A stretch of DNA of 64,000 bases, taken from an uncultured Planctomycetota bacterium. Its GTDB lineage: Bacteria; Planctomycetota; Planctomycetia; Isosphaerales; Isosphaeraceae. Shown in pieces: positions 23,689 through 56,464 of the stretch (within the stretch, counting starts at the first letter, position 1; each line of letters opens with the position of its first letter). The notes below the pieces were generated by a model. The model was not told the DNA's origin. It made no database searches and saw only the letters and a list, made by a program, of their open reading frames with translations. Both the position numbers and the translations under genes were made by a program. Where the stretch lies: contig CAWGMQ010000004.1 of NCBI GenBank assembly GCA_963823665.1, positions 256,001 through 320,000 on the forward strand, read 5' to 3'.

Positions 23689-26433
23689 CTACTTCTTGAA
23701 CTCGCCCTTGTCGTAGCGAGCCCAGAATTCCGCCGCCGGCCAAACAGAGTTCCAGTCGATGCCGATCGTTTTGAGGCTCTTCATTTTGCGGAGCACATCG
23801 AAGCCCCTCGCGGTGATCTTCCCGGGGGTCAGGCGAATGTCTTCGAGCGTCAGGCCCTGTATCGGCGTCAGGTCGGACACCTTGCTCCTTACCAGATTCA
23901 GAGAATTGAGAGTCTTGAATTCCGCCACCTGGGCCAAACCCGCGTCGCTCACGGATGTGTCACTGAGGACGAGAACGGCCAGGTCCTTGCAGTTTCTGAT
24001 CTGCGCAAGACTCGCGTCGCCCACCTTCGTGCCATGACAGTTGAGATGAGTGAGCGGCATCCCATTGAGCGGCGAGAGGTCGGACACGTTCGTGAAGCTG
24101 GCGTTCAGATACGTTAGCTTCATGCCCGCCAGCGGCGACAAATCGGAGACCCGCGTCGCAACGATGTTGAGCGTAGCCAGTGGCATGCCCTTCAAGGGCG
24201 AGAGGTCGGCCACCCTCGTGTTCTCGAGGCCCAATGATTCGACCCTCATGCCCTTGAGAGCCGCCACGTCCTCGACCTTCGTCCCGCCGATGTCCAGGGT
24301 TTCTAGCGGCATTCCCTCGAGCGAGGAGATGTCGGCAACCTTCGTGGCGGCAATGTGGAGAAAACTCAGCCTCATCCCCTCGAGCGGCGACAGATCGAAG
24401 ACCAGCGTGTCATAGGTCGACAAGCTCGTGAGAGGCATCCCTCGCAGCGGTGTGAGGTCGGACAGTTGTCCTTTGACAACGATGAGCGTGTTCAAAGGCA
24501 GCCCGGACAGGGGCGACAAGTCCGTGAGCGAGCTCTTGTGAACTCCCGTTCCGGAAAGCTTGAGAGACCTCAACCTTGAAAGCACGCGCAATGGCGTGAT
24601 GTCGGTTATGGCATCCGTGTCGAGCTCCAGTTCCCTGACTACGCGGTTCTCGATGGTGGGCCGAAGAGCGCCATCGAACCCGGGATTGAGCTCTTTCAAG
24701 CGAACGCTCAAAGCCTTCACCTGCTCCCCGGCCGAGAGCGCGTTGACAGCGCGCTCCCAAGCCAGCGCGTCGGCTGACCGCGGCGCGGGCTTCGCTGCGG
24801 GCGTCGCCGGCTCCCGGCTCACTCGCACGACGCGCCGGCCGTTTTTCGTGACCGTCACCAGTTCCTGCTTCACCAGCTTGCCATTCCTGGTGGCCTCGAC
24901 CATGTAATTGCCGGGCGTCAGGCGGATTTCCCTGGCGCCTGCTCCCGTGATGACGATATCCGACCCCTCGATCTTGACGCTGACACCGGGGTCGTCGACT
25001 TCGACAACCAGTGTCCCCTCTGGAGAGAAGAGGCGAATCACGGTGCCGTGGAAATCGGTGACGCCGGTCGCTTCCGTGAGGCCCAGGGATCCGAAGAGCG
25101 TCACCAGTACGGCCGCCGCGACCGCCCAGCGACGCTTGAAAAACTTGAGCCATCGCGTCGCCGGCCGGGGTTTCGGGATTTCCTTGGGCGGAGGCGCCTT
25201 CGCCTCCCCCGACTTCGGGACATCCGGAACCGGCGGGATCGTGCCCAGCCCCCGGAGCTCAGCCAAACGTTCCGCGAACAGTTCCGCCAGGTCTTGCGCC
25301 GAGGTGATCCGGTCCGCCGGGTTCTTGGCGTGCAGGACCGAGATCAGCTCGCAGAGCCACTCGGGGACCTCCGGGATGATCTCCCGGATCGGGCGGGGTG
25401 TGTCTTCCACGACGCGTTTGAGCACGGCCATCGTGTTCGCGGCCCGGAACGGCGGGCGGCCGCTGCACATCGTGTAGAGCACGCTGCCCAAACTGAAGAG
25501 GTCGGCCCGCTGGTCGATCGGCTCCCCTTGCGCCTGCTCGGGAGCCATGTACATCGGCGTGCCCGCGACGTATCCCGACTGCGTGATGCTGGCGTCGTCG
25601 GCCGCGCGGGCCAGGCCGAAGTCGGTGATCTTCACGTGCTCGATGCCGTCTTCGAGCAGGATATTGCCCGGCTTGATGTCGCGGTGGATCAAGCCCATCG
25701 CGTGCGCCGCGGCCAGACCGGCGGCGATTTGCCCGCCGATCTTGAGCACGTCGGGTAGCTCCAGCGGACCGGTCGCCTCGAGCTTCTGCTGCAAGGTTCG
25801 TCCCGCGATGTAATCCATCACGAGATAGGGGATCGGCTGGTCTTCGACCGCATAGATGGCGATTATATTCTCGTGGCGGACGGCCGCCGCCGTCCGCGCT
25901 TCACGCAGAAACCGCTTGCGGGGCGCCGAGGTCGCGGCCAAAAGCGGGGACATGAGCTTGATGGCGACGAGCCGATGCAGCTTCTCGTCGAACGCCTTCA
26001 CCACCGTCCCGAAGCCGCCGTTTCCGAGAACCTCCAGCACCTGAAATTGCGCCAGCCGGCCCAGCGAGCCGGGCTTCTCCGAGGGCTGCAGGAAGCTCAG
26101 GGCGCTCTCCACGTCGTCGCCTCGCTCTTGGCCGAGCCTCTCGTTCAGCTCGGTCCTTGCCCCGCGATCGCGCGGGCCTCTTTCCTCCTGGCCGCTCGCG
26201 GGAGCGAGACTCGTCATGTCGGCAGTGGCAGCGTCCGTGTCGAACTGCCCGCAATCGACGGCGGGCTCGGCCAGGAAGTCCATCGCCTGCGGATGGGACT
26301 CCAGCAATCGTTCGACCTTGAAGCGAAGCACCGGGTCAGCTCCACAGGCTTGGTCCAGATAATCTGCCCGCTCCGCCGCCTTCTTCTCGAGCGCGGCGAA
26401 GAAGATCGACTCGACCTGCGAAGGGCTGCTCAT
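23689..26433 (-). CDS. Ser/Thr protein kinase with a TM helix and C-terminal leucine-rich repeats
   Basis: LGNGGFG, VAIK, HRDIKPGN, TDFG, GTPMYMAPEQ; TM WAVAAAVLVTLFG; repeats of VSDLSPLxGMxL. Confidence 0.93.
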   Translation of the reverse strand: MSSPSQVESIFFAALEKKAAERADYLDQACGADPVLRFKVERLLESHPQAMDFLAEPAVDCGQFDTDAATADMTSLAPASGQEERGPRDRGARTELNERLGQERGDDVESALSFLQPSEKPGSLGRLAQFQVLEVLGNGGFGTVVKAFDEKLHRLVAIKLMSPLLAATSAPRKRFLREARTAAAVRHENIIAIYAVEDQPIPYLVMDYIAGRTLQQKLEATGPLELPDVLKIGGQIAAGLAAAHAMGLIHRDIKPGNILLEDGIEHVKITDFGLARAADDASITQSGYVAGTPMYMAPEQAQGEPIDQRADLFSLGSVLYTMCSGRPPFRAANTMAVLKRVVEDTPRPIREIIPEVPEWLCELISVLHAKNPADRITSAQDLAELFAERLAELRGLGTIPPVPDVPKSGEAKAPPPKEIPKPRPATRWLKFFKRRWAVAAAVLVTLFGSLGLTEATGVTDFHGTVIRLFSPEGTLVVEVDDPGVSVKIEGSDIVITGAGAREIRLTPGNYMVEATRNGKLVKQELVTVTKNGRRVVRVSREPATPAAKPAPRSADALAWERAVNALSAGEQVKALSVRLKELNPGFDGALRPTIENRVVRELELDTDAITDITPLRVLSRLRSLKLSGTGVHKSSLTDLSPLSGLPLNTLIVVKGQLSDLTPLRGMPLTSLSTYDTLVFDLSPLEGMRLSFLHIAATKVADISSLEGMPLETLDIGGTKVEDVAALKGMRVESLGLENTRVADLSPLKGMPLATLNIVATRVSDLSPLAGMKLTYLNASFTNVSDLSPLNGMPLTHLNCHGTKVGDASLAQIRNCKDLAVLVLSDTSVSDAGLAQVAEFKTLNSLNLVRSKVSDLTPIQGLTLEDIRLTPGKITARGFDVLRKMKSLKTIGIDWNSVWPAAEFWARYDKGEFKK

Positions 26434-26463
26434 GGTATCGCTCCGATCCCGGAAGGCCTGCCC

Positions 26464-26493
26464 TCAATGCGACGAATTCCCTCGGAACCCCTC
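26464..26493 (-). promoter_or_regulatory. Putative ECF promoter, copy A (GAGGGGTT-N12-GTCGCATTGA)
   Basis: 30 bp upstream of the STK-LRR ATG; same spacing as copies B-D. Confidence 0.5.
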
Positions 26494-26575
26494 GAGCGAG
26501 GGACGGATTCTACCACATCTGCGGGGATCTGAAACAAAGGTTCCTGACCCCTTTGTTCTGCCAGCTCGAATCGCT

Positions 26576-26992
26576 TCAACGGAGCCCCAAATGAATGTTG
26601 ATCGACTTGCCATCGAGATCGACACTCAGCATCCCATCCACCCCGCTCTTCGGGAAGAGGGGAAGCCCCGTCGGCGTGACCAAACCGTCGCCCTCGGCCT
26701 TGAGATCCACCTTCTTCTTCCCGACGGTGAGGGTTCCCGCAGCGGGCGATGGCGAATAAGGGGTGGTGCCGTCATTCCTGAGGAAGTAGAAGGAGATCTC
26801 GGCGCTGATCGGAGACCTCCCCGACACCTCCTTCTTGACAACTTCGACGTATCCCTGGCCGCCTGAAATGGCGATCCGGTTCCCTTTGTGGGGCGGAGGC
26901 GGTCCCGAATATGACGTCGAGGCAGGCCCCCCACCGCAACCGGCGAGAAGTCCAAGGAACACGAGACAACCCGAGCGCACGATCTTGAACAT
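26576..26992 (-). CDS. Lipoprotein accompanying a DUF1559 gene
   Basis: Lipobox LLAG|C; lies directly downstream of the DUF1559 gene. Confidence 0.75.
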   Translation of the reverse strand: MFKIVRSGCLVFLGLLAGCGGGPASTSYSGPPPPHKGNRIAISGGQGYVEVVKKEVSGRSPISAEISFYFLRNDGTTPYSPSPAAGTLTVGKKKVDLKAEGDGLVTPTGLPLFPKSGVDGMLSVDLDGKSINIHLGLR

Positions 26993-27139
26993 CGAAGAAG
27001 TCCTCTCACCGCAGGGGGCGAATAAAACCGTTTCAGTGGGAAGGCGGAAGCATGATGGAAACAGCATTGTCTCGGGGACGGAGGAGTCTCACTTCATCCG
27101 CGGATCGACGAGATCCGCCGGCTTCGAGGTCAACGATCC

Positions 27140-28273
27140 TCAGTACGAATCGGAGCTGATCACCTCGCCGCCGGCTCGCGTCGAGAGCTGCTGGTAGACG
27201 CCGAGGCTCGCGCCGTTGTTGACGAGGTAGTGGCCCGTCTTCGAGTAAGGAGCCGTCGCGGCAATGGACTGGTAAAGCGTGCCGTCCGGCATGGAGTCGC
27301 CGGAGCCGTCGTTATTGCCGGTGTTGAAAGTCCAGGAGCTGATGGAATTCTTGATGAAGTGCACGGAACCGTCGCAGCAAGCGAAGTTCGCACCACCGGG
27401 GTGGAAGCTCCCTGCCGCCGTCGGGCCGAAGTATCCGTAGCCGGAGCTGCCGATCGGCAGACTGTTTCCCATCCCGATGTTAAGAGGATAGAGCGTCGCG
27501 AACAGGCTGTCGTACCAGCGGCCGGAGTTCCACGCGTTGTCCGAGATGGCATAGGCCGGATCCACGATGAACAGGTGCCCCTTGCTGTGCTCGGCGAACA
27601 GGAAGGTGTTGCTGGTGCCGTCGGTGATGCTCGCGATCTTGACGGAGCTGTCGTTGTAGATAACGCCGGTGTAATACGGCAGTGGAGTGGGCGGCATCAG
27701 ATTGGAGAAGCCGAAAGTCCAGGTGCCCGCATTGCCGCCGTAGCTGGTGAATGCCTGGGTCCAGTTGCCGGGCGGCAACGGATACACCTCATTGAAACTC
27801 CATCCGGGTGTGACGCCAGAGGACGCCTGCGTCGCGGGGAGGGCGATCGTCTGGTTCTGTGTGTCGCTCGGGCAGATCAGCGAGTTGATCTGCACGCCGG
27901 CAATCGTCAGGTTGCCCGGGTCGGATGAGCAGAGGTTGAAATTGGCCGCGTTGTACATCGGTGCTTGCTCGAAGAACGGCAGCATGCGAGCGAAGCAACT
28001 GAAGTTCTCCGGATACGTGGCCCAGTGAGGGGGGTTGAACATTGTGCCCGAATACGATCCGCCGGGGAAGCAGCCGTTGGTCGACTCGTAGTTCATGGCG
28101 GCCAGGGCGATCTGCTTCAAGTTGTTGGTGCACTGGGAGCGGCGCGCGGCCTCACGGGCCGCTTGCACCGCCGGCAACAAGAGGGCGATCAAGACGGCTA
28201 TGATCGCAATCACGACCAGGAGTTCGATCAGCGTGAAACCACGCACGAGACGGGGCGTCGAAGTGGAGGTCAT
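27140..28273 (-). CDS. DUF1559 (SBP_bac_10) protein with prepilin-type N-terminal methylation motif and H-X9-DG motif
   Basis: [68 protein letters not shown]. Confidence 0.95.
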   Translation of the reverse strand: MTSTSTPRLVRGFTLIELLVVIAIIAVLIALLLPAVQAAREAARRSQCTNNLKQIALAAMNYESTNGCFPGGSYSGTMFNPPHWATYPENFSCFARMLPFFEQAPMYNAANFNLCSSDPGNLTIAGVQINSLICPSDTQNQTIALPATQASSGVTPGWSFNEVYPLPPGNWTQAFTSYGGNAGTWTFGFSNLMPPTPLPYYTGVIYNDSSVKIASITDGTSNTFLFAEHSKGHLFIVDPAYAISDNAWNSGRWYDSLFATLYPLNIGMGNSLPIGSSGYGYFGPTAAGSFHPGGANFACCDGSVHFIKNSISSWTFNTGNNDGSGDSMPDGTLYQSIAATAPYSKTGHYLVNNGASLGVYQQLSTRAGGEVISSDSY

Positions 28274-28405
28274 GGATCCGGGCTCCTCACGGTAGGGGAT
28301 CACGTACTTCCCGACACCGATTGCGATCGGGATCGGCAGGACGCACGGGACAAAAGAGAAACGGCTGATTCTCCGGACAGACATCGTCGGTCGTGGATGG
28401 ACCTT

Positions 28406-31400
28406 TCATCTCCCATCCACCGGCCGTGATTTCCAGGCCAGGAAAACGTCTCGATAGTGGTCGGGGTCCTTCCGGAACGTGGATTGATCGACGAACTCAA
28501 CACCCTCGGTGAGGTCGATCTGTTGCCCGGTCAGCAGACGCATCAGCGCCTTCGAGTCGACGAAGGGGACGTCGAACCGAGGGAGCGGAAACGTGAGCGT
28601 CTCGGCTCCCACGACCGCATTCAAAGACCGGCCGGCGGCGTCGAACCACAGGGCCGCCGGCCTGGTTCGGTTGCCGTAGGGAATGGTGAGGAGCCGCTCG
28701 CCCCGTTCCACGTCGAACATGCGGAAGCCGTAGACGTAGTCGTCTACCGCCAGCCGCCGGCTATCGGGGACGGCCTGGCGGCCAGCAACCCGATCGCCCC
28801 CGGCGCGGTCGTCGTACACCGCCAACCGCCGGCCATCCGGGCTCACGCCGATCGCCAACTGTCCGCCCGGCTGGCTGACCGCCGGGCCGAGCGGGATGCC
28901 CGTGTCCGCGTCATACATCCGAGCCTGACCGTCACTCGAAGCCAGCAGGACTCGTCGTCCGTCGTCCGAGAACTGCACCTTCCGGAGATATCCCCGGAAC
29001 CTCCGGTTGTGGTGGACGATCGCGCCGGTGTCGACGTCCCAGACGGTCAGCGTGCCGGTCGACTCGATCGCGACCGCCAAGCGGCGTCCGTCGGGAGAGA
29101 CGGACGCATCGCTCACCCACCTTGCACGGCTCGGCTGCTCGAATACCTGCGGGCCGGGGTCCGGATGACGGGTCGGGCCGAACACGCGCCGGCCGGCCGT
29201 CAGGTCCCACACGGAGAGCGTCTTCTCGTCATCCAGGCAGACGATCCGCGTCCCGTCCCGGGACAGGTTAACCGGCCGGAGCATTTCCGGCGTTAACCTG
29301 GTATTCTCGCGCGGATCGGCCGGGATGGCGGCGGCGACCGGCGGACTGGACGAAATGCGGGTGTTCCAGCGCCAGCGCGGATCGATCAGCGTGGCTGCCG
29401 CCACGACCGGCCCGGCCGGGGCGACGGTTTCAGGGTCCCACGCCCGGATGGCTCGACCGCCGGAAACGACCAGCCGCGAGCCATCGTCACTGAAGCGAGC
29501 CCCGTCGACCGAGCCGGGGTGAGAGATCGGGCGCGGCGCGACGTTCGGCCCCGAGCCATACCACGCTTTCCCGTCATTCGTCCATTCCACCCAGCGCCGC
29601 GCGTCCGGGCTGTAAGACCGGAATGTCGATTGGTCCGTCATAACCGTGACCAGGAGGTTCGCGCGTCCGCAGTCGTATCGATAGGGGTGGGAGGGCGGAG
29701 TGCGCGGCCCTGTGGCCCAGACCCGCACGGTGCCATCCTGGCTGGCCGCCAGGTACCGGGAGCTGTCCGCGGTGAATACGACCGCGCTACAGAAGTCGCC
29801 GCACCGCTGCGGCGGACCGGCACGCAGACCAGTGGCCGCGTCCCACAGGCTGACCAGGCCCCCGCTGCTGCACGTGAGCAGCCATTTGCCATCCGGGCTG
29901 ACCGCGCCGAGGTTCGCTTCCCGCGGATGAGACAACTCGTGAACGACCTGGCCGTGCTTGAGCTCGACCACCAACGCCACATTGGTATTTCCGGTCACCA
30001 GCACCCGGTCGGTATTGGGCACGAAGTACGTCTCGACCACCCAGTATCTCGTGCCGAAGGGGATTTTCCGCACGGCGTCCTTCTCGCCGCCCGCCCACAC
30101 TTCCAATCCCCTGCCGTCGGAGCTGAGCACGGCCCGGCCATCCGGCGCGAATTTGGGCCAGCTATCCTGGTTGAACGCGTAACGCTCGGTGTCCGTCGGC
30201 TGCCGGTAGGAGAGCGTCGGCGAGATGGCCTTCGGCGGATCGACATCCCAGACCCGGACGAGCTTATCCCGGCCGGCGGTGAGGAGCCGGGACCCATCGG
30301 AGGAGAACGCCAGATGCTCGATCACCATGTCGACGGGCAACCGCCAGGCGATCGGCTTTCCGTCGATGGCGGACCACATCCGCACCGTCCTGTCCTCGGC
30401 GGCGGTCGCCAGTCGCTTGCCGTCGGGGTGGAACGCGACCCAGGTCAGCGGGCCGTCGTGTTTCAGGGTGTATCGCCTGGCCCCGTTGGCCGAATCCCAG
30501 ACGCACGCGGTGCCATCGGCCGATGCCGTGGCGACCGACTTCCCGTCGGGACTGTACGCGATGTGCCGCACCCGGCCGGCGTGCGACAGGGCTGGCGCGG
30601 CGAGCCGGCTGCTCTCGTAATCCCACAGATAAGCCTCGTTCCCGTCGGTCCGGGTGAGGACGCGCCGTCCGTCCGGCGAGAAGACGGCGTCGCAAACCTT
30701 CGTCTTGTGGAAACACGCCCCGACCAGGTCGGGCATCTCGGCGAGTGCCCCGGCGATCCGCGTCCGATGAGCGGCGTCGGCCGACGGGTCGGCATGGTCC
30801 TGCTCCCACGCCCGGTGGAACCAGAGGAGGGCCGCAGTGATGTCGCGGTCGTCCTGGTATCGGACGCCGGAGAAGACGTAGAGACGCGTCAGTCGTTTCC
30901 GCGCCTCCTCGGCCGATTCCTCGGCGGCCCGACGCGCGATGGAGGCTCGGACCGAGGCGGTCTCGGCGTCTTTTCGCGCGCGGGTCGCCTCGCGCTCCCG
31001 GTCAACCGCCGTGCCGCGCTCGTTCTCCGCGCGAACGGCGTAGAACGATGCAAACCCGGCCCCGGTGAGCGTCGCGAGCAAGACCGCCGCGACCAGCGAT
31101 GCAACGGCGGGGTTTCGCCGGCACCACCGCACGGTTTGCTCGGTCAGGGTCGCGCGACGGGCCCGGATCGGCTCGTCGACGAGGAACCGCCCCAGGTCTT
31201 CGCCGAGCGCCTCGGCCGATGGGTACCGCGTCTTCGGGTCCTTCTCGATCGCCTTCAAGACGATCGTCTCCAAGTCCCGCGGGATCCGAGCATCGATGGC
31301 CCGCGGCCGCTCCGGTTCCTCGCCCTTGATCTGCTCGATCAGCCTGAGCCGGTCCGAGCAGTCGAATCCCGGGCGCAGGGTGAGTAGCTCGTAGAGCGTC

Positions 31401-32875
31401 ATCCCCAGTGAGTAGACGTCGGCCCGAGCATCCCCTTCACCCCGGAAGCGTTCGGGGGCCATGTAGCGAATCGTCCCCAGGATGTCGCCGCTCTGGGTCA
31501 GCCCTTCGTCTTCCGCCTTGGCCAGGCCGAAGTCGGCGATCCAGACGACCCCCTCGGTGTCGAGGAGCAAGTTCGCCGGCTTGATGTCGCGGTGGACGAT
31601 CCCTCGCGCGTGGGCGTAGGCCAAGCCCCCGGCGACCTGCCGGCCGATCTGCGCCAGGCTGCGGAAGAACCCGAGCCCACCCGAGTCGACCGAGGAGAGC
31701 TGGCTACCCCCGGGCAAGACCGCGGAGCTGGACGACGGGGAGAATTGCGATGAACCAAGGAGATGGTTTTTCGTGGTTGCCGGAGTCGGAGGCGTCGTCC
31801 CAGATCCGTTAACGTCCGGGTCGGCTTGAGGAACGCCCATGCGGAATTCTGCCTGGCCATCGAGCTCGTCAATTTCGCCTGCGGTCATACACTCGGTCCG
31901 GGTGTCCGCCACCACGACGTCGGATTTGGTTGCGCGATGCTTGGCCAGGATCGCCGTCGCGGTTGCGAGGTTTCCGTTGCGTGTGCTGCCCAGCATTGAT
32001 GGTGAGGCTTGCTCCGGCTCCGAGGTTCGGCCGCCAGGCTCGAAGCGGCCGATCAGAATGGTCCGCAACACCTCACTGACCTCGGCTCCCGCGGCCATTG
32101 TCGGGGCTGCCATGGCCTGGCGCGAGCGCTCTCCGTGGCGGCGGGGCCGGAGCAACTGGCCCAGCGAGGCTGCCTTGGCTTTGTGCTCGGATCCCCCCTG
32201 GTCGCGGAGCTGCTGCAGCTCGGTGATGACCCGATCGAGGCCTTGGCCCTGGATGAACTGCATGGCGTAAAAGCGGACTTCCTCGTCCTGCCCCACCTCG
32301 AAGACCGGCACGATGTTGGTGTGATGGAGTCGTGCCGCGGCGCGGGCCTCGCGGCGGAATCGCTCCTGGACCAGCCGGTTGCCGGATGCTTGCTTGGGCA
32401 AGACCTTCAGCGCCACGCGACGGCCCAGCGAGATCTGCTCGGCCTCGTACACGACCCCCATCCCGCCCCGGCCGATCTCGCGGAGGATCCGGTAGTCGCC
32501 GATTTGGGCCAGGGGGGAATTCGCGGTCCGGGAATCCCCGGTCTCCTTCTCCTTCTCCTCCTCGACCTGTCGGCCGCCCTCGGCCTGCTCGACCTGGACC
32601 ATCGCCGGGAACAGCTCGCGGATCTCCTGGGCCAGCTCCGGGTAGCGATCGGGCGGGTGGGGTTCACGGTCGAGTGCGCCGCCCCCAGGACGTTCGACGG
32701 CAGGCCGGGCCATGAAATCGGCCGCCTGGGGATAGGCCATCAGGAGCCGTTCCACTCCACGGCGCAGCTCGGCATCGCCACCGCAGGCGTGATCGAGATA
32801 ATCGGCTCGCTCCGCCGTTGTCTTCTTGCCCAGCGCGGCAAAAAAGATCGACTCGACCGGTGACGAGGTATTCAT
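28406..32875 (-). CDS. Ser/Thr protein kinase with a TM-like segment and WD40 beta-propellers
   Basis: IGRGGMG, VALKVL, HRDIKPAN, ADFG, GTIRYMAPE; many SPDG...VRVWD repeats. Confidence 0.93.
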   Translation of the reverse strand: MNTSSPVESIFFAALGKKTTAERADYLDHACGGDAELRRGVERLLMAYPQAADFMARPAVERPGGGALDREPHPPDRYPELAQEIRELFPAMVQVEQAEGGRQVEEEKEKETGDSRTANSPLAQIGDYRILREIGRGGMGVVYEAEQISLGRRVALKVLPKQASGNRLVQERFRREARAAARLHHTNIVPVFEVGQDEEVRFYAMQFIQGQGLDRVITELQQLRDQGGSEHKAKAASLGQLLRPRRHGERSRQAMAAPTMAAGAEVSEVLRTILIGRFEPGGRTSEPEQASPSMLGSTRNGNLATATAILAKHRATKSDVVVADTRTECMTAGEIDELDGQAEFRMGVPQADPDVNGSGTTPPTPATTKNHLLGSSQFSPSSSSAVLPGGSQLSSVDSGGLGFFRSLAQIGRQVAGGLAYAHARGIVHRDIKPANLLLDTEGVVWIADFGLAKAEDEGLTQSGDILGTIRYMAPERFRGEGDARADVYSLGMTLYELLTLRPGFDCSDRLRLIEQIKGEEPERPRAIDARIPRDLETIVLKAIEKDPKTRYPSAEALGEDLGRFLVDEPIRARRATLTEQTVRWCRRNPAVASLVAAVLLATLTGAGFASFYAVRAENERGTAVDREREATRARKDAETASVRASIARRAAEESAEEARKRLTRLYVFSGVRYQDDRDITAALLWFHRAWEQDHADPSADAAHRTRIAGALAEMPDLVGACFHKTKVCDAVFSPDGRRVLTRTDGNEAYLWDYESSRLAAPALSHAGRVRHIAYSPDGKSVATASADGTACVWDSANGARRYTLKHDGPLTWVAFHPDGKRLATAAEDRTVRMWSAIDGKPIAWRLPVDMVIEHLAFSSDGSRLLTAGRDKLVRVWDVDPPKAISPTLSYRQPTDTERYAFNQDSWPKFAPDGRAVLSSDGRGLEVWAGGEKDAVRKIPFGTRYWVVETYFVPNTDRVLVTGNTNVALVVELKHGQVVHELSHPREANLGAVSPDGKWLLTCSSGGLVSLWDAATGLRAGPPQRCGDFCSAVVFTADSSRYLAASQDGTVRVWATGPRTPPSHPYRYDCGRANLLVTVMTDQSTFRSYSPDARRWVEWTNDGKAWYGSGPNVAPRPISHPGSVDGARFSDDGSRLVVSGGRAIRAWDPETVAPAGPVVAAATLIDPRWRWNTRISSSPPVAAAIPADPRENTRLTPEMLRPVNLSRDGTRIVCLDDEKTLSVWDLTAGRRVFGPTRHPDPGPQVFEQPSRARWVSDASVSPDGRRLAVAIESTGTLTVWDVDTGAIVHHNRRFRGYLRKVQFSDDGRRVLLASSDGQARMYDADTGIPLGPAVSQPGGQLAIGVSPDGRRLAVYDDRAGGDRVAGRQAVPDSRRLAVDDYVYGFRMFDVERGERLLTIPYGNRTRPAALWFDAAGRSLNAVVGAETLTFPLPRFDVPFVDSKALMRLLTGQQIDLTEGVEFVDQSTFRKDPDHYRDVFLAWKSRPVDGR

Positions 32876-33303
32876 GGCATCGCTCCGATCCCGAAGGGCC
32901 CTATCCTCATTGCGACACTACCTACGAGTTTTCACGTCACCTTTCGTTGCCGTCGATCCGCTCCGGGCACCGCCAGCCCGGCCGCACCGTCACGCCGTCG
33001 ACCGCTTGCGCGGCGGTCTCCGAACTGCCAGAGGGCAACCACCGGACCTGATGTCAGCAGAATCGAACGTCTCCTGGGTCGAGATCCTTCCTGACAGACG
33101 AAACACGTAGGTCCCGGCGCCGGGACGGACCGGCCGACAGCGCTCGAGATCCGCAGCGCGTGGAACGATCATTACGGCGGCCCGAAGATCGACCGGGGAC
33201 ACGGGACGACACAGAACGGGACCGACAGCGTCGGCCTAGAGCGACCTAGGGGTTGTCTCGAGACCTCGGACACCGATGGCTCAGGAGAGCGCGTTTATTT
33301 TGC

Positions 33304-33440
33304 TGTCATCAACGCGACAAAAGCGCGCGAAACCCCTCATTCCTCTTGAAGAATTCTCAAGATTTTTTCGGAATGGCCACGGTTTTTGAGCTCGGCAAAG
33401 AGCCAGGTGCGGAGCGTAACCTTCTTGTCCATGTCCACTT
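33304..33440. repeat. 137-bp direct repeat, copy 1 (ECF sigma 3'-end remnant plus promoter motif B at 33309-33338)
   Basis: Near-identical to 39461..39597; its segment TTTGAGCTCGGCAAAGAGCCAGGTGCGG matches 45791 onward. Confidence 0.9.
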
Positions 33441-33458
33441 CGGCTGACTGCATTGCCG

Positions 33459-33600
33459 GACAGGGGCTGACGCCCCCCGCTCAACCGGAACCGCCGATCG
33501 CAGACCCGGAACAGTTGATCACAGACAGGGGGCTGACGCCCCCCGCTCGCACGGAGCTGCCGATCATGGTCACGGAACTGACGCCCCCCGCTCGCCCGGG
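33459..33600. repeat. Array of REP-like hairpins GACAGGGGGCTGACGCCCCCCGCTC (3 units)
   Basis: Units at about 33459, 33524 and 33578; stem GGGGGC-TGAC-GCCCCC. Confidence 0.85.
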
Positions 33601-33657
33601 ACCGCCGAGCGCGCGCCGGAGGGAAGATCGGCCCACGAGGGAAGATCGCCGTGGCAC

Positions 33658-36600
33658 TCACTCGTAAATCACGGTCCCATAGATGTTGTTGCTGGTCGAC
33701 GCGAGGTTCTGCGCGACCGTCGATTTGTGGAGGGTGACCACCGCGCCGGTCGCGACGTAGAGGCCGCCGCCGATGCCTTCGCCGTTGCCAAACAGGCCGC
33801 TCAATGCCTCGTTCAGGAGGATATCCGACTGGTCGAAGCTCGCGGAGCCGTCCGCGCCGACCCGGGCGCCGCCACCCCAGGCATTGCCGCCTTTCGCTCC
33901 CGACCCGGCTCGGCCGCCCTGGGCGAAATTGCCGGTCACCAGGCCCGCGGTCATGGCCAGCGACGACGTGTCCGAGTTGCCGAAGACGTTGCCGATCGCC
34001 ACGGCAATGGCACCCCCGATGCCATTGCCGCCATTGGCCCCGGCGCCACCGGCACCCCCCTGGGCCAGATTGCGCAGGAAGAGCGTGTTGTTGACGGTCG
34101 CGGTCGCGTTATTCTCAAGAGCGAGACCGCCGCCGATGCCATCGCCACCGGCATCGCCGCTGGCCCCGGCACCGCCCTTTGCCGTGTTAACCATCACCGT
34201 GCTGCTGGAGAGCGCGACACTCCCGCCGTTGCTCAAGATGCCGCCGCCGATGCCATTGCCGCCGGCGCCGCCTAGGGCCTGGTTATTGCTGATGGTGCTG
34301 GAAGCGACGTGCAGCGTGGCCTGATTAAAAATGCCGCCGCCGGCGACGGCGGAGTTGCCGCTGACGCTGGTACCGGTCAAAGCGGTCGAACCAAGGGTGT
34401 AGTTGTCCAGCCCGCCGCCATTGCCGGTGGCGGAGTTGCCGCTGACGGTGCAGTTGCTCAGGATGGTCGTGCCGTAGTTGTTGCCGTCATAGGCAAAGCC
34501 ACCGGTGTACAACCCGCCTCCGCTCGCCGCCGAGTTGCGACTGACCGCGGTGTTGGTCGCCGTGGTCGTGCCGAGAAAGGAGGTGAACAGGCCGCCGCCA
34601 CTGCCGGTCACGGAGTTGCCGCTGACGCGGCAGTTGCTCAGGTTCGTCGCAGCGTAGCCCTTGAGTTGCGGGCCCCCGTCGAGGGTAAAGATGTCGCCTT
34701 CGGTGGCAACTCCGCCGCCGGAGCCAGCGGTGTTACCGCTGATGGTGCAGTTGATCAGAGTGGCCGTGCTGACGAAGCCAAGGGGCAGGTCGCCGAAAAC
34801 GGCACCGCCGTTCCGCACGCCGCCGCCCTCGCTGCCGGCGCTGTTGCCGCTGATGGTGCAGTCGTTCAGGGTGGTTGCGCCATAGTTAACCACGCCGCCG
34901 CCCGAGCCGCTGGCGGAGTTGTGGCTGATGGCGCAGCGATAGAGTGTGGTCGTGGCCGATCCGTTATAATCGCCGAATGACTTCCCGTTGGCCAGGCCGC
35001 CGCCGCCGCCGCCGTCGAAGGCGCCGCTGGCGGAGTTGCCGCTGACGGTGCAGTGCGTCAGCGTGGCTATCCCCTCGTTGTACACACCACCGCCATAGCC
35101 GGTGCCCCCGGAGCTATACGTGGCCGTGTTGTCCCTGACCGTGCAGTTCATCATGGAGAGCGCGGCCCCCGTGTCGTTCGCCACGCCGCCGCCGTTGCCG
35201 CCGCTGGCGGAGTTGCCGCTGACGGTGCAGTTGGTCAGACTGAGCGTGCCGTAGTTCAAGACGCCGCCGCCGCTGCCGCCGCCGGAATTGCCGTCGGTGA
35301 TCGTCAGGCCCGTGATGGATGCGGTGACGCCCGCGTCGACCTGGAACACGCGGCTGGCATTGTTGCCGCTGACCGTCACGCCCGCCGCCGGGCCTATGAT
35401 CGTCTCCGTCCCGGTCGTGTTGCTCAGCTCGAGCTGGCTGGCGCTCAGGGTGATCGTCTGGTGCCCGGCGAAGATGGTCGGGGCGAAGCTGATCGTGGCG
35501 GCGCCGGGTGTGATGTTGATGAGGCCGATAGCGCCGCTCAGGTCGAGCATGCCGGGGGGGCAGCCGCCGCCCTCGGCGGTCGTGTTGACCAAGAGCGGAA
35601 TGGGCTGAACCTCGAAAGCGCCGATGTCCACCGTGCCGTGGCCGATGCGGGCGTAGCCGCGCTGGTCGGTGGTGACGCCGCCAGGGACGAGGGCGTTACT
35701 GCCCGCATCGATCGCCGGGCTGCCAGGCAAGAGCGCCATGGTCTCGGTCGGCCCGCCGTAGGAGTCGAGCGGGGCCAGCAAGGGTTGAAGCGGCGTGGCG
35801 ATGGTGCCCGTCAGGTCGGAGCCAACCCAGCCGGAGCTGCCGTCGGTCTCGCCGATCAGGTTGTGGCCTGGGGAGGTAACGGCTCCGTAGACATCGGGCC
35901 CGCTGGTGTTAGCCGTGTTCCCCGCCACGATGGTGTTGCCCAAGGTCGCCGTGCCGTAGTTCTCCAGACCGCCGCCGGTGCCGTAGGCGTAGTTGCCGCT
36001 GACGGTGCAGTTGGTCAGCGAGACCACACCGAAGTCCGCCACGCCGCCGCCGCCGTCGCCGTAGGCGGAGTTGCCGCTGACGGTGCAGTTAGTCAAGGTT
36101 AGCGTGCCGCTGGACGTGCCCAGCCCGCCACCGCCGCCGCCGGTGGAGTTGCCGCTGATGGTGCAGTCAGTCAGCGTGGCCGCGGCGTGGAAGATGTTCA
36201 CGCCGCCGGATGAGAAGCTGGCGTAGTTCCCGGCGATGGTACAGTTGGAGAGCATGGCCATGGCACCGTATGTGACGTCGACGCCGCCGCCGGTGCGGGC
36301 CGGGGCGCCGCTAGCGGTGTTCCCGCTGACGGTGCAGTTGGTCAGCGTCAGCGTGCCGCCGCCGGTGCTGGCCACGCCGCCGCCGTAGCTGGCGGAGTCG
36401 CCGCTCAAGGTGCAATTGGTCAGGGTGAGGTTGCCGCCGTAGTTGGCCAGGCCGCCGCCATTGGAGGCGCTGCCCCCGGTGATCGTCAGTCCCGAGACTG
36501 ACGCCGTGACTCCCGAGTCGACCTGGAACACCCGGCTGTTCCCGCCGGCGCTTAATGTCACGCCCGCCGTCGGGCCCGTGATCGTCTTTTTCCCGCTCGT

Positions 36601-38400
36601 GTCGCTCAGCTCGAGCTGGCTGCCCGTCAGGTCGATCGTCTGCGGCGTCTCGAACACCGTCTTGTCAAAGGTGATCGTTTGGCCCGGGACGTCGTTGGCG
36701 CCCGCGATTGCCTCGCGCAGGCTGGTGGTGCCGCAATAGAATCCGAATGCGTCGGCGGTGGTGTTGACCACGAACCTGGGGGCGATCACGGTCAAGGTGT
36801 CGCCCGGGCTGGTGACGCCCTGCCAGGACGCGGTGATCGAGCTGGTGCCAAGGGCCAGGGCCGAGGCCAAACCGGTGCCGCTGATCGTGGCTACCGACGG
36901 TGTCGCCGACGCCCACGTCGTCACCGACTTGGTGATGTCCTCAGTCGAGCCGTCGGAGAAGGTGCCTGTGGCGTTGAACTGCCCGGTGACGCCCAAGGCC
37001 AGGCTCGGGTTGCTCGGTGAGAGCGCAATCGACACCGGCGGTGTGTTCGTGAGGCCAAAATAGGCCGTGCCTGAAGCGCCGTTGGCCGTGGCCGAGACGA
37101 TGTAGCTGCCGGCGAAACCGTTGTTCTCGGCCGTGACGCTCGCCGTGCCGCTGGCGCCGATGACTGCCGGGCTGCCGATGATCATCGCCGACGCCCCGCT
37201 GGCCGGCGGGGTGAATGTGACCAAACCCCCGGCCACCGGCTCGTTCGTATTGTTGGCGGTGACCGTCGCGACCAAGGGGTTGGGGAACACGAAACCTTCT
37301 GCTGTCTGGCCGCCTCCCGAAGTCGCTGCAATGGTGAACCCGCTAGACTCGAAGGCACCGATGTCCACGACATTGTTGACGATGCGCGGGAAGCCGGCGC
37401 CGCGCTGGTCGGTGGTGACGCCGCTTGGAATGAGGGCGATGTTGCCCGCGCCGATCGCCGGGCTCCCGGGCAGTTCGGCCATCGTCGGGGTCGGCCCGCC
37501 GTAGTTGCCCAGGGGCGCCAGCACGGGATTGAGCGGCGAGGCCACGGTTCCGGTCAGGTCGGAGCTGACCCAGCCTGAGCTGCCGTTGGTCTTGCCGATC
37601 AGGTTGTTGCCCAGCGAGGCGAAGGAGCCAAAGACATCAGGGAAGGAGCTGAACGCCGAGTTCCCGGCGACGATCGTGTCGGTCAGCGTGGCCATGCCGC
37701 TGGACTTGCGAATGCCGCCGCCCTCGAGGCTGACGGAATTGCCGCTGACGGTGCAGTCGTCCAGCGTGAGCGTGCCGGCATCGCGAATGCCGCCGCCAAC
37801 GGCGGCGAAGTTGCCATTGACGGTGCAGTTGGTTAGCGCAACCGTGCCGCCTTGGTTATTAATCCCGCCGCCCTGGGCCAAAAACCCGATGCCGCTGTTG
37901 CCGCTGATTGTGCAGCCGGTCAGCGTGAGCGTACCGCCAGAGTTGTCCAGTCCGGCGCCGTCGCCGCTCGTCGAGCCGCCGGTGATCGTCAGTCCAGAGA
38001 TCGACGCGGTGACACCCGAGTCGACCTGGAACACCCGGCTCGCGTTGTTGCCGGAGATCGTTACCCCTCCCTGGCCCGGACCCTCGTAGATCGTAGTGGC
38101 ATTGCTCGCGTTGCTCAGCTCGAGCTGACCCTGCAAGAGCGTGATCGTGGCCGGCCCGGAGCCCAGCTCGAGCTCGATGGCGCTGGGACTTGTCGCCGCA
38201 TTGGCCTCGGCAATGGCATAGCGCAGCGTGCCCGCGGTCAGAGTGGCTGGATCGGCCGTGCTGGTGACTGTGAATGTCGAGAGCAGCCGGCGGTCCTCTA
38301 GCGCCAGGAGCGCCGGCTGCAGCCGTTGTCGCCGCCGTTTCCGGGACTGGACTGTACCCCGCCTGCCTCTTCGCTGGTCTTTGGCTAAGCTAGTACGCAT
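33658..38400 (-). CDS. Large exported right-handed beta-helix protein (pectin-lyase-like repeats, choice-of-anchor Q-like, Big_2, Gly-rich C-terminus)
   Basis: LALEDRRLLS planctomycete export motif; LTNCTVSGN-GGG repeats; two GGPTxTMAxLPGSPAI...DQRG...DIGAFE blocks. Confidence 0.88.
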   Translation of the reverse strand: MRTSLAKDQRRGRRGTVQSRKRRRQRLQPALLALEDRRLLSTFTVTSTADPATLTAGTLRYAIAEANAATSPSAIELELGSGPATITLLQGQLELSNASNATTIYEGPGQGGVTISGNNASRVFQVDSGVTASISGLTITGGSTSGDGAGLDNSGGTLTLTGCTISGNSGIGFLAQGGGINNQGGTVALTNCTVNGNFAAVGGGIRDAGTLTLDDCTVSGNSVSLEGGGIRKSSGMATLTDTIVAGNSAFSSFPDVFGSFASLGNNLIGKTNGSSGWVSSDLTGTVASPLNPVLAPLGNYGGPTPTMAELPGSPAIGAGNIALIPSGVTTDQRGAGFPRIVNNVVDIGAFESSGFTIAATSGGGQTAEGFVFPNPLVATVTANNTNEPVAGGLVTFTPPASGASAMIIGSPAVIGASGTASVTAENNGFAGSYIVSATANGASGTAYFGLTNTPPVSIALSPSNPSLALGVTGQFNATGTFSDGSTEDITKSVTTWASATPSVATISGTGLASALALGTSSITASWQGVTSPGDTLTVIAPRFVVNTTADAFGFYCGTTSLREAIAGANDVPGQTITFDKTVFETPQTIDLTGSQLELSDTSGKKTITGPTAGVTLSAGGNSRVFQVDSGVTASVSGLTITGGSASNGGGLANYGGNLTLTNCTLSGDSASYGGGVASTGGGTLTLTNCTVSGNTASGAPARTGGGVDVTYGAMAMLSNCTIAGNYASFSSGGVNIFHAAATLTDCTISGNSTGGGGGGLGTSSGTLTLTNCTVSGNSAYGDGGGGVADFGVVSLTNCTVSGNYAYGTGGGLENYGTATLGNTIVAGNTANTSGPDVYGAVTSPGHNLIGETDGSSGWVGSDLTGTIATPLQPLLAPLDSYGGPTETMALLPGSPAIDAGSNALVPGGVTTDQRGYARIGHGTVDIGAFEVQPIPLLVNTTAEGGGCPPGMLDLSGAIGLINITPGAATISFAPTIFAGHQTITLSASQLELSNTTGTETIIGPAAGVTVSGNNASRVFQVDAGVTASITGLTITDGNSGGGSGGGVLNYGTLSLTNCTVSGNSASGGNGGGVANDTGAALSMMNCTVRDNTATYSSGGTGYGGGVYNEGIATLTHCTVSGNSASGAFDGGGGGGLANGKSFGDYNGSATTTLYRCAISHNSASGSGGGVVNYGATTLNDCTISGNSAGSEGGGVRNGGAVFGDLPLGFVSTATLINCTISGNTAGSGGGVATEGDIFTLDGGPQLKGYAATNLSNCRVSGNSVTGSGGGLFTSFLGTTTATNTAVSRNSAASGGGLYTGGFAYDGNNYGTTILSNCTVSGNSATGNGGGLDNYTLGSTALTGTSVSGNSAVAGGGIFNQATLHVASSTISNNQALGGAGGNGIGGGILSNGGSVALSSSTVMVNTAKGGAGASGDAGGDGIGGGLALENNATATVNNTLFLRNLAQGGAGGAGANGGNGIGGAIAVAIGNVFGNSDTSSLAMTAGLVTGNFAQGGRAGSGAKGGNAWGGGARVGADGSASFDQSDILLNEALSGLFGNGEGIGGGLYVATGAVVTLHKSTVAQNLASTSNNIYGTVIYE

Positions 38401-38523
38401 GATGGTGCATCTCAGTTGATCATGAACAGATTCGGATGACTTACGGATCGAAATCGGTGGGTTTCACCTACCCTACGAATTTCTTGATATTTGCGCATGG
38501 CCATTCACGGATGCTGAGTGTGG

Positions 38524-38550
38524 GACAGGGGGCTCACGCCCCCCGCTCGC
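38524..38550. repeat. Single REP-like hairpin of the GACAGGGGG family
   Basis: GACAGGGGGCTCACGCCCCCCGCTCGC. Confidence 0.8.
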
Positions 38551-38604
38551 CGCGGCCGGCATCGGACACCCATTGCTCAAGAGGGCGCGTTTGTTTTGCA
38601 GTCT

Positions 38605-38634
38605 TCAACGCGACGAACGCGCGCGAAACCCCAC
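38605..38634 (-). promoter_or_regulatory. Putative ECF promoter, copy C (GTGGGGTT-N12-GTCGCGTTGA)
   Basis: About 205 bp upstream of the beta-helix gene; about 70 bp of context is similar to 33268-33338. Confidence 0.55.
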
Positions 38635-38663
38635 GAGGGCACGACTCAGCGCCTCGTTCGCGT

Positions 38664-39194
38664 TCAAGTCGCCGGCATCGTGACGTTCAAGTTGACCGTG
38701 AGGGTGAACTTCCCGGCGGGCTTCACGCTGTCTGGATTCCGGATCATCAAATCGAGCGAGCCCGATCCGCTGCCGCCGATTCCCTTAAAGTGCTTGGTGC
38801 CCTTGGTGATGGTCATCGTCACCGGGCCCGGGAGTCTGCCAAGTTCGGTCGTGTCCACCACCGTGTCCATCACGATGTTGCCTTTCGGCGTCGTCAGCGT
38901 AAGCGTGCCGGTCATCTGATAGTCTGGGCCCGAGACATTTTCCGACCCCTTCACCGTCGGATGACCCAACGGGGTGACAGGGCCCTTACCCGTGAGGTGG
39001 TACGGCCCATCGCCTCCCGCGGAAGTGAACGTGCCTTTGAGCGTGCCGGACACGTTGGTTACCGTGCTCGCATCCGGCAACTTGGTCACTAGCGCCGGCG
39101 CAGCGTGGTGTGTGACTGCCGAAAAGCCTGACAACAAGACCATCGATTCGAGCAACTCGACACTGGGACGGTGGCGGTACGTTTTGCGAATCAA
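38664..39194 (-). CDS. Small exported all-beta protein with a LEPRxLL-like motif
   Basis: GGAGG RBS before TTG 39194; RHRPSVELLESMVLLS; Thr/Gly-rich beta strands. Confidence 0.7.
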   Translation of the reverse strand: MIRKTYRHRPSVELLESMVLLSGFSAVTHHAAPALVTKLPDASTVTNVSGTLKGTFTSAGGDGPYHLTGKGPVTPLGHPTVKGSENVSGPDYQMTGTLTLTTPKGNIVMDTVVDTTELGRLPGPVTMTITKGTKHFKGIGGSGSGSLDLMIRNPDSVKPAGKFTLTVNLNVTMPAT

Positions 39195-39460
39195 GATGCA
39201 GGTCCTCCAGATAATGCAACCAGAGGGATCGAAACGGAAGGAAGTCAGCGATTGACATCGGGCGCACACTCACCCCGACGACCGAGAAGGGTCGCGACGT
39301 TCGACCGGGCTCCTGCCGGTCGATTCCGCCGCCACATTCACCCTGGCGCGGCGAAGCTGCAACCAAGAAGACCGCAGGGAGTCGACCGGGTTTGCCCCCA
39401 GCGCCTGCGCGTTGATCCAGCCCTCGGAGAGTGACGGCTCACTACGACGCGTTCACTCGA

Positions 39461-39597
39461 TGTCATCAACGCGACGAACGCGCGCGAAACCCCTCATTCC
39501 CCTTGAAGAATTCTCAAGATTTTTTCGGAATGGCCACCGTTTTTGAGCTCGGCATAGAGCCGGGTGCGGGGCGTAACCTTCTTGTCCATGTCCACTT
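39461..39597. repeat. 137-bp direct repeat, copy 2 (ECF 3'-end remnant plus promoter motif D at 39466-39495)
   Basis: Near-identical to 33304..33440. Confidence 0.9.
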
Positions 39598-39628: not shown

Positions 39629-39785
39629 GGGACGAGCGGGGGGCGTCAGTCTTCACGGCCGGACAGGGGGCTGACGCCGCCCGCTCACCCGGAACCGCCG
39701 ATCACAGACAGGGGGCTGACGCCCCCCGCTCGCACGGAACCGCCGATTACAGACAGGGGGCTGACGCCGCCCGCTCACCCGGAAC
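39629..39785. repeat. Inverted REP-like half unit followed by about 2.75 tandem 45-bp REP-like units
   Basis: GGGACGAGCGGGGGGCGTCAG (39629), then units starting at 39662, 39707 and 39752. Confidence 0.88.
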
Positions 39786-39829
39786 TTCCTCTGACAAGTA
39801 TGAGACCGGTCGGTGTGAAGGACCGAACG

Positions 39830-45763: not shown

Positions 45764-46339
45764 TCAGGAATTCGCGGAATCGTCCCGGTCTTTGAGCTCG
45801 GCATAGAGCCAGGTGCGGGCGTAAGTCCAGTGGCGCTCGGCAGTTGCCAGCGAAATCTTGAGGACCTGGGCGATCTCGGGCATGGTGAGGCCGGCGAAGA
45901 AGCGGAGCTTGACCAGCTCGGCCTTGTCAGCGTCTTCCGCCGCCAGCTTGGTGAGGGCCTCGTCGAGGGCTTCGAGGTCTACGGATGGTCCCTTCGCCAG
46001 GAAACCGACTGCGTCCAGGTCGACACGCAAGCGAGCGCCACCGTGCTTGACACGTTTCTTGCGGCGAGCCTTCTCGACCAGGATCCGGCGCATCGCCTCG
46101 GCGGCCGCGGAGAAGAAGTGACCGCGGCCGTCCCACTGTTTGTCGTGACCTTCGCCGACGAGCCTGAGATAGGCCTCGTGGACCAGGTCGGACGATTGGA
46201 GGGACAGCCCCGGGGCCTCAAGGGCGAGCCGCTGGGTGGCCATCTCTCGCAGTTTCTTGTAGACCAGGGGAAGGAGCTTCGAGGCAGCCCCCGGATCGCC
46301 TTGCTCGATTGCTGAAAGGATTGTTGTGACTTCGCTCAT
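45764..46339 (-). CDS. ECF-type sigma factor, TIGR02999/Sigma70_ECF family
   Basis: MSEVTTILSAIEQGD...LLPLVY...LVHEAYLRL...FFSAAAEAMRRILVEKAR...LRFFAGL...YARTWL. Confidence 0.93.
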   Translation of the reverse strand: MSEVTTILSAIEQGDPGAASKLLPLVYKKLREMATQRLALEAPGLSLQSSDLVHEAYLRLVGEGHDKQWDGRGHFFSAAAEAMRRILVEKARRKKRVKHGGARLRVDLDAVGFLAKGPSVDLEALDEALTKLAAEDADKAELVKLRFFAGLTMPEIAQVLKISLATAERHWTYARTWLYAELKDRDDSANS

Positions 46340-49401: not shown

Positions 49402-49494
49402 CTCGCGTGGACTCCGAAGTGAGTGTGTCATCCTCTTTCCTGATGGTGACAGACTTGATCAAACCACCGCCAACTTATTTTGACGAGCCGCAAT

Positions 49495-52390: not shown

Positions 52391-52481
52391 CACGCAAAGG
52401 CCCCCCCGACGACAACGGTCTATACCCTTGTAGTACCGGCGCCCGGGGACTCACCGCCAACTATTTCAGAAAAATCTCCGC

Positions 52482-56324: not shown

Positions 56325-56462
56325 TCAGCTCGCAACCCCCGACTCGAGGTAATAGATCATGTTCCAGACGCGGTCGATCTCTCGTCGCTCGATGACTTCG
56401 AGGGACTTGAGCCCACCGAAGGCATCGTTCGGCGTGTCGAGCCACTGAGCGTGGCGGGTGAT
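56325..56462 (-). pseudogene. C-terminal remnant of an Xre/MbcA/ParS-like antitoxin (DUF2384-like)
   Basis: QWLDTPNDAFGGLKSLEVIERREIDRVWNMIYYLESGVAS* with no start codon, immediately after the ECF stop. Confidence 0.6.
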
Positions 56463-56464
56463 CC

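Follow-up and report, generated by a model that had tools for sequence, protein, structure and literature searches.

Several groups of sigma factors of the extracytoplasmic function (ECF) type are encoded beside Ser/Thr kinases. The closest described system is ECF43, represented by EcfK/PknS of Xanthomonas citri and EcfP/PknT of Vibrio parahaemolyticus (PMC13147305, PMC8999054), which shares kinase neighbours with the locus described here. A kinase also adjoins the sigma gene in planctomycete ECF59, ECF61, ECF62 and ECF217 (PMC7826278). In the recognition code of Todor et al. 2020 (PMC7776599), RpoE R171 is tied to promoter position -31 and S172 to -34. Our subject is a 64,000-nt stretch of DNA (the window) from an uncultured Planctomycetota bacterium (GCA_963823665.1, contig CAWGMQ010000004.1, positions 256,001 to 320,000), in which four copies of a bipartite motif stand in front of genes in an island that also encodes a TIGR02999 sigma. 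The motif is a form of an element found just downstream of TIGR02999 sigma genes, very probably the cognate -35/-10 promoter of this family as judged from sequence. The window copies are likely promoters with the spelling for the sigma encoded at 45764-46339 and two paralogues, and would drive the kinase and likely secreted-protein genes of the island.

A two-box element behind TIGR02999 sigma genes

The copies and the sigma gene are given here with scores from the two-block model described below.

26464..26494, minus strand: copy A; -35 CGAGGG (26489-26494), -10 CGCATT (26466-26471), canonical A at 26468, 20.8 bits
about 26458-26459, minus strand: predicted transcription start of copy A
33309..33339, minus strand: copy B; -35 TGAGGG, -10 CGCGTT (G variant), 14.5 bits; predicted start about 33303-33304
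38605..38635, minus strand: copy C; -35 CGTGGG, -10 CGCGTT (G variant), 12.5 bits; predicted start about 38599
39466..39496, minus strand: copy D; -35 TGAGGG, -10 CGCGTT (G variant), 13.6 bits; predicted start about 39461
45764..46339, minus strand: TIGR02999 / PF07638 ECF sigma, 191 aa; code residues D70, E89, R96, A165, E168, R169; Q48-S-S-D51

An initial annotation of this DNA had reported four minus-strand copies of G[AT]GGGGTT-N12-GTCGC[AG]TTGA, each upstream of a minus-strand gene. All four were found where it had placed them, and none of 100 dinucleotide shuffles of the window matched. The exact pattern has 6 matches in the 16.46-Mb genome and its reversed control has 0. Every copy does precede a gene on its own strand: counted from the conserved -10 base, the start lies 35 nt away for a Ser/Thr kinase (STK) gene, STK-LRR (copy A), 438 nt for STK-WD40 (copy B), 209 nt for a 1580-aa beta-helix protein (copy C) and 276 nt for a 176-aa LESMVLL protein (copy D).

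The evidence that this is a sigma promoter comes from the family as a whole. The genome holds at least 41 TIGR02999 matches over the cut-off (150 of 362 candidates were scored), and a similar two-box element stands right after many of the stop codons at the 30 best of these loci. We gathered 197 sigma loci from this genome, its relatives and 80 GTDB loci. Exclusion of 19 (no hit, no anchor or a short flank) and removal of near-duplicates left 162. De novo motif discovery around TIGR02999 genes by expectation-maximization, a check proposed in the initial annotation, located the motif downstream of the sigma genes, with a log-likelihood ratio of 844 against 165 upstream. The resulting two-block model reads TG[AG][CG]G..-spacer-(T)CGCA[TC]TG, with TG-N21-CGCAY as its core form.

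Scores of at least 10 bits were reached in 117 of 162 downstream regions, compared with 3 of 162 upstream. Because the model had been trained on the downstream set, it was frozen and applied to 80 new metagenome loci, 69 of them usable. Here 49 of 69 downstream regions and 1 of 66 upstream regions passed. The search for an autoregulatory motif upstream of the sigma genes gave noise only in both sets, and this candidate was rejected. A single spacing between the boxes occurs in 89% of training sites and in 45 of the 49 held-out sites. Counted from the first base of the sigma stop codon, the -35 box begins at a median distance of 21 nt. At 85 of 117 loci the element is followed by a kinase-type start, with a median of 42 nt between it and the conserved A.

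Two further features lie outside the trained blocks. Beyond the conserved A, at a distance of 9-10 nt, a pyrimidine is followed by a purine (in 67% and 90% of training sites, respectively, and in 38 and 45 of 48 held-out ones), and at the family level an A-tract lies 13-17 nt ahead of the -35 box. Of the window copies, only C has the pyrimidine-purine step at the modal position; it comes one base earlier in A and D, and in B it is a C-A step, also one base earlier. Elsewhere in this genome, four near-identical TIGR02999 sigmas (L018, L020, L022 and L027, at C6:342417-354044 and C10:1154049) have kinases behind them and no clear downstream motif.

The bases of the element change with the residues of the sigma. 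Mutual information was computed between 175 protein columns and 27 DNA columns over 117 sigma-site pairs, numbered as in the window sigma. The ten strongest pairs mainly join the sigma4 helix to the -35 box or sigma2 to the -10 box. On the sigma4 side, bases 5 and 6 of the -35 box are paired to E168, bases 3 and 4 to A165 and base 2 to R169. On the sigma2 side, the partners are R96 for the two positions just ahead of the -10 core, D70 for the one that follows CGCA, and E89/R93 for the initial C. The dependence is close to a code: R at residue 165 goes with C in 45 of 46 pairs and A with G in 31 of 35, E at residue 168 with G in 27 of 27, N at residue 70 with C in 32 of 33 and D with T in 50 of 52.

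Common descent does not explain this covariation, because a one-residue rule trained only on sigmas less than 65% identical still predicted bases with an accuracy of 0.82-0.84, compared with 0.49 for copying the nearest relative. For 48 held-out sigmas the rule reached 0.83; choosing the majority base gave 0.59, copying the nearest relative gave 0.53, and none of 2000 shuffled pairings did better than 0.625. Residue and base also changed on the same branches of a FastTree tree from which the code columns had been left out (21 joint changes for 19 and 17 single; controls, for example, 38 for 19 and 24). In an alignment to RpoE, to which hhalign gave a probability of 11% and in which the sigma2 mapping is of low confidence, E168 corresponds to R171 and R169 to S172. 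The partner bases of E168 and R169 are 3 apart and in the same order as the -31 and -34 partners of the two RpoE residues. No solved structure matched the window sigma by sequence at E<=0.001, and Foldseek with its model gave weak ECF matches only (best E 0.006). In the AlphaFold model (predicted local distance difference test score, pLDDT, 78; no DNA in the model), residues 164-190 and 72-100 are helical. The promoter reading is thus backed by family-wide position, fixed spacing, residue-base covariation and the held-out test together.

Probable readers and origin of the window copies

The window sigma scores 194.4 bits against TIGR02999 (cut-off 126.15) and 198.1 against PF07638 (cut-off 21.1). 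Trained on 103 sigmas less than 62% identical to it, the code predicts the spelling T-G-A-G-G-G and C-G-x-C-G-C-A-T, which copies A-D fit at 34 of 36 code positions (A 9/9, B 8/9, C 8/9, D 9/9). When 26 sigmas of the genome were scored on the copies, L016 (C3:1807680) and L010 (C4:2882860) equalled the window sigma, and the next score was 30. Among the 45 matches in this genome, partial ones included, these three alone share all seven key residues. The initial annotation had named the 45764..46339 sigma as the reader. That sigma is indeed in the best-matching class, and since L016 and L010 tie with it, the assignment is right to the class and not to a single gene. That this class reads the window copies we hold to be likely.

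The distribution of sites across the genome fits such a class. The pattern YGAGGGG-N16-CGCRYT has 20 matches, against 4 for its reversed control. Twelve of the 20 score at least 11.5 bits, and all twelve precede a co-oriented gene, seven of kinase type and five with an LExRxLL leader. The other eight score at most 10.4 bits, roughly like the 4 control matches. The good matches are mostly grouped behind same-class sigmas on contigs C3, C4 and C7, and the two sites behind a sigma with N70 on C7 read CGCACT, in agreement with the residue code. Two other promoter classes show no sign of expansion in the genome (TGGCRSG 10 against 6 for the control, TGAGRCD 13 against 13). In 20 relatives the TGAGGGG pattern is near control level, except in the same-genus genome G001 (16 against 11). 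G001 carries an orthologous island with all four copies and extra ones, and a second such island too.

Part of the history of the copies can be read from the DNA around them.

33369..33419, minus strand: remains of the 3' coding end of a TIGR02999 sigma gene (a sigma-tail relic) ahead of copy B, 88% identical to window 45775-45824
39526..39576, minus strand: remains of the 3' coding end of a TIGR02999 sigma gene ahead of copy D, 86% identical to window 45775-45824
32907..32916, minus strand: lone -10-like box GTCGCAATGA, remnant of an A-type promoter/leader, no matching -35

The relics before B and D are 51 nt each; no sigma-tail relic stands in front of A or C. Cargo on C3 and C11, and at several sites in G001, likewise has a cassette of relic plus motif in front of it, and the relics start at nt 391, 440, 461, 462, 465, 480, 503 and 516 of the 576-nt sigma gene. 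The simplest reading of these sequences would be duplication of a sigma gene tail with its promoter, the coding part eroding from the 5' side. Copies B and D have 144 nt in common at 94% identity, and B and C 71 nt at 87%, extending beyond the motif; only A has a separate spacer. The initial annotation had argued from the largely different spacer of copy A for a promoter rather than a simple duplication. B, C and D, for their part, are duplicates.

The same annotation had noted the lone GTCGCAATGA box before the STK-WD40 ATG. The box is present, and the region around it is homologous to the stretch from copy A to its ATG (73 nt, 81%). With no matching -35 it scores 1.2 bits by the two-block model, against 12.5-20.8 for copies A-D. 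That score ruled it out as a fifth promoter, and it is probably a decayed one.

Related remnants were seen elsewhere. Cargo in another genus of the family is flanked by two identical TGAGGGG sites (L282:7768 and 11522), the first behind an apparent sigma-tail remnant. On C7 of this genome, a truncated TIGR02999 sigma (L203, C7:638808-639329) lacks the end of the recognition helix and lies 2.7 kb from a G-type copy, which stands before a beta-helix gene.

Several observations weigh against the reading of all four copies as promoters of the window sigma class. B, C and D carry G at the conserved -10 position, where 111 of 117 training sites have A and a single one has G; of 48 held-out sites, 43 have A and 2 have G. 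The leaders of B, C and D, at 209-438 nt, are far longer than is usual in the family, where a median of 42 nt separates the conserved A from the kinase start. Box and flank conservation between the two genomes do not differ significantly (2/72 against 37/481 mismatches, p=0.21). The two paralogues with the same fit lie at other loci or contigs. No motif lies within 350 nt upstream of the window sigma gene (best 1.4 bits) or directly downstream of it, and the nearest copy is 6.3 kb off. Frameshifts break several island genes, among them the kinase at 39800-44577 and the DUF1559 gene behind the window sigma, which could reflect decay or assembly error. At the family level, the low probability of the RpoE alignment counts on the same side, as does the number of independent pairs on supported tree branches: nearly all go in the same direction, with at most 5 pairs, so p<0.05 is unreachable.

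These points bear first on whether B, C and D are active. The element could be a real TIGR02999 promoter of which only copy A works here, the other three being dead passengers of segmental duplications of sigma 3' ends. The A-to-G change at a near-invariant base, the long leaders and the unremarkable box conservation all favour this, and the spacer and flanks common to B-D show their common descent. Set against it, the gene after each of the three is still intact or nearly so, and the motif persists in copy C without a sigma relic. The boxes are retained in eight G-type copies from this island and the corresponding one in G001, and in one from C7, even as most columns of the following 40 nt vary; the point is weak, since the search pattern itself fixes most box columns. 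At another pair of orthologous sites the two genomes differ, one having A and the other G, which suggests that the G is tolerated. We regard loss of all three as possible but doubtful, and lean slightly toward activity of B-D. They may be weak because a rare G replaces the near-invariant A; by their spelling, copy A is likely of full strength and B-D weaker.

A second alternative keeps the copies as promoters and gives them to other readers. The paralogues at C3:1807680 and C4:2882860, or near-class sigmas on C7, would be the main readers, the window sigma having lost its own downstream promoter. L016 and L010 have identical code residues and have, or had, a site directly behind them; directly after the window sigma gene comes the DUF1559 gene, not a kinase. 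Against this, the window sigma is intact and over the family cut-off, and it is conserved at 97% DNA identity before the same island in G001. Each same-class sigma also heads its own cluster of same-class sites. This division of labour strikes us as improbable, and we prefer the reading in which the whole class, window sigma included, acts on the copies. Just past the sigma stop, homology between the two genomes ends (window 45761; L278:9735), with the DUF1559 gene and a divergent kinase here and a 1.1-kb gene in G001. It is as if the sigma had been separated from its own downstream promoter in both genomes.

A function unrelated to transcription initiation is very hard to sustain. One such view takes the repeats for sites of recombination or attachment, used by an element with a preference for sigma 3' ends as its point of insertion. 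In its favour, cargo genes are flanked by sigma-tail relics in direct repeat, and REP-like palindromes adjoin B, C and D. The start points of the relics vary, however; the duplicated target thus lacks a fixed junction, and the attachment site was rejected. A structural RNA was rejected as well, Rfam having no match in 23000-47000. Neither would co-vary with DNA-contacting residues encoded 250-350 nt away. The REP-like palindromes are GC-rich and form clusters with 45-66 nt spacing at 33443-33623, 38509-38568 and 39630-39806, and at C10:482826-483219; all 12 genome matches fall in this island or the one C10 cluster. No transposase was recognised by eye beside the C10 cluster, where no family scan was made.

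Least credible is that the motif belongs to a repressor or to the window's three other ECF sigmas with C-terminal extensions (48004-49431, 51422-52393, 56325-57803), which lie nearby: it tracks TIGR02999 genes and residues over many genomes, and no site of at least 10 bits lies upstream of the three extended sigma genes (best 7.4).

The island genes and a proposed mechanism

The genes behind the copies and those that follow them are these.

23689..26433, minus strand: Ser/Thr kinase STK-LRR, with an LRR domain and a single hydrophobic segment; the gene directly follows copy A
26576-about 26995, minus strand: small cysteine-bearing gene, likely lipoprotein; downstream of STK-WD40 and the DUF1559 gene, on the same strand
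27140-28384, minus strand: DUF1559 gene, same strand, after STK-WD40
28406..32875, minus strand: Ser/Thr kinase STK-WD40, one hydrophobic segment, WD40 propellers; behind copy B
33658..38400, minus strand: 1580-aa beta-helix / choice-of-anchor-Q protein with LEDRRLLS leader; behind copy C
38664..39194, minus strand: LESMVLL-leader protein of 176 aa, preceded by copy D; G001 has an orthologue

Both kinases have an intact HRD motif and a single hydrophobic segment. The proteins with LExRxLL leaders are likely secreted; the 176-aa LESMVLL protein has no Pfam or NCBIfam profile match.

In the mechanism that we propose, A165, E168 and R169 of the sigma4 helix would read TGAGGG, and R96, E89 and D70 of sigma2 would read CG.CGCAT. 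At every copy, transcription would begin some 10 nt beyond the conserved -10 A. The sigma gene would not be autoregulated. The gene behind it, usually a kinase, would be transcribed instead, giving positive feedback through the activator. By analogy with EcfP/EcfK, a signal at the membrane kinase would lead to phosphorylation of S50, the position of the family Thr, and the activated holoenzyme would make more kinase and LExRxLL proteins. Sigma2.2 of the window sigma reads Q-S-S-D at 48-51. Position 50 is T in 227 of 231 family sigmas, and D at position 51 occurs in 6 of 231, four of them from the clade of the window sigma. EcfK keeps an acidic residue, a point discussed in PMC13147305, and by analogy the window sigma may be partly active without phosphorylation through D51. 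The regulon would grow as a sigma 3' end with its promoter is duplicated before new genes and the coding part then erodes.

Other features of the island were noted along the way. The start of the STK-WD40 gene (32650-33115) looks chimeric, with an A-type kinase N-terminus fused to a kinase body that in G001 has a different start; this is consistent with recombination between repeated cassettes. On the plus strand at 39800-44577, the divergent Ser/Thr kinase has an ATPase-like middle part and an FGE-sulfatase C-terminus, and is split over four reading frames. The three extended ECF sigmas, on the minus strand within 46497-52393 and at 56325-57803, are tandem duplicates (82% over 300 nt). Two of them are followed by carboxypeptidase-regulatory-like repeat frames, apparently frameshifted.

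Comparison with known systems

By the criteria of PMC7826278, the window sigma resembles ECF43 in having a Sigma70_ECF domain in place of separate sigma2 and sigma4 Pfam domains, and Ser/Thr in place of the acidic DAED motif in sigma2.2. It differs in several respects. A kinase gene is expected at +1 in ECF43, and here a DUF1559 gene takes that position. The supplement of PMC7826278 confines ECF43 to Proteobacteria, whereas the named TIGR02999 relatives here are mostly Planctomycetota, with some Verrucomicrobiota. The ECF43 promoter predicted in PMC7826278 has GTC at -35 and CAG at -10; the element described here has TG[AG][GC]G.. and CGCAY and lies behind the sigma gene. The window sigma also has the rare S-D at 50-51. 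It is ECF43-like, and not an ECF43 member. The planctomycete groups with adjoining kinases are other sigma subfamilies; according to PMC7826278, the -35 of ECF59 contains TC and ECF61 has no conserved motif.

A full-text literature search found no description of a downstream promoter for the TIGR02999 family, which does not establish its absence from print, and no validated promoter for these sigmas was found in the literature searched. The terms 'ECF43' and 'planctomyc' do not occur in the main text of PMC7776599, although its datasets could hold code-based predictions for the family. Surveys that search upstream only would miss an element downstream of the sigma gene, which would account for their lack of a consistent motif.

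If our reading is correct, feedback runs through the kinase rather than the sigma, and the regulon spreads by gene-tail copying. The downstream promoter and the six-residue code make each paralogue's targets predictable from sequence, and the sigma-promoter pairs would be candidates for orthogonal, phosphorylation-switchable parts. A broader picture can be drawn, in which we place somewhat less than even confidence. A promoter behind a kinase-switched sigma gene would let tail duplication seed new cargo, a partly kinase-independent D51 clade would have a multi-island regulon, and the at least 40 paralogues would form largely orthogonal pairs read from six residues.

Canonical autoregulatory ECF promoters, such as those of RpoE and the TGTC..-CGTC type of ECF41/ECF42, are likewise bipartite, with fixed spacing and a -10 box that opens with C-G. 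They stand before the sigma gene, which the TIGR02999 element does not, and feedback here would go through the kinase. The contact logic and the equivalent positions (RpoE R171/-31, S172/-34 and probably N84/-13) agree with the code of Todor et al. 2020 (PMC7776599), as do the pyrimidine-purine start site and the UP-element hallmarks. Their dictionary drew on motifs that lie upstream of a sigma gene, its operon or a divergent gene, in contrast to the downstream signal used here, and in our data positions 165 and 96 are strong determinants. What is known, then, is the ECF contact logic; what would be new is a promoter placed behind the sigma gene and spread by tail duplication.

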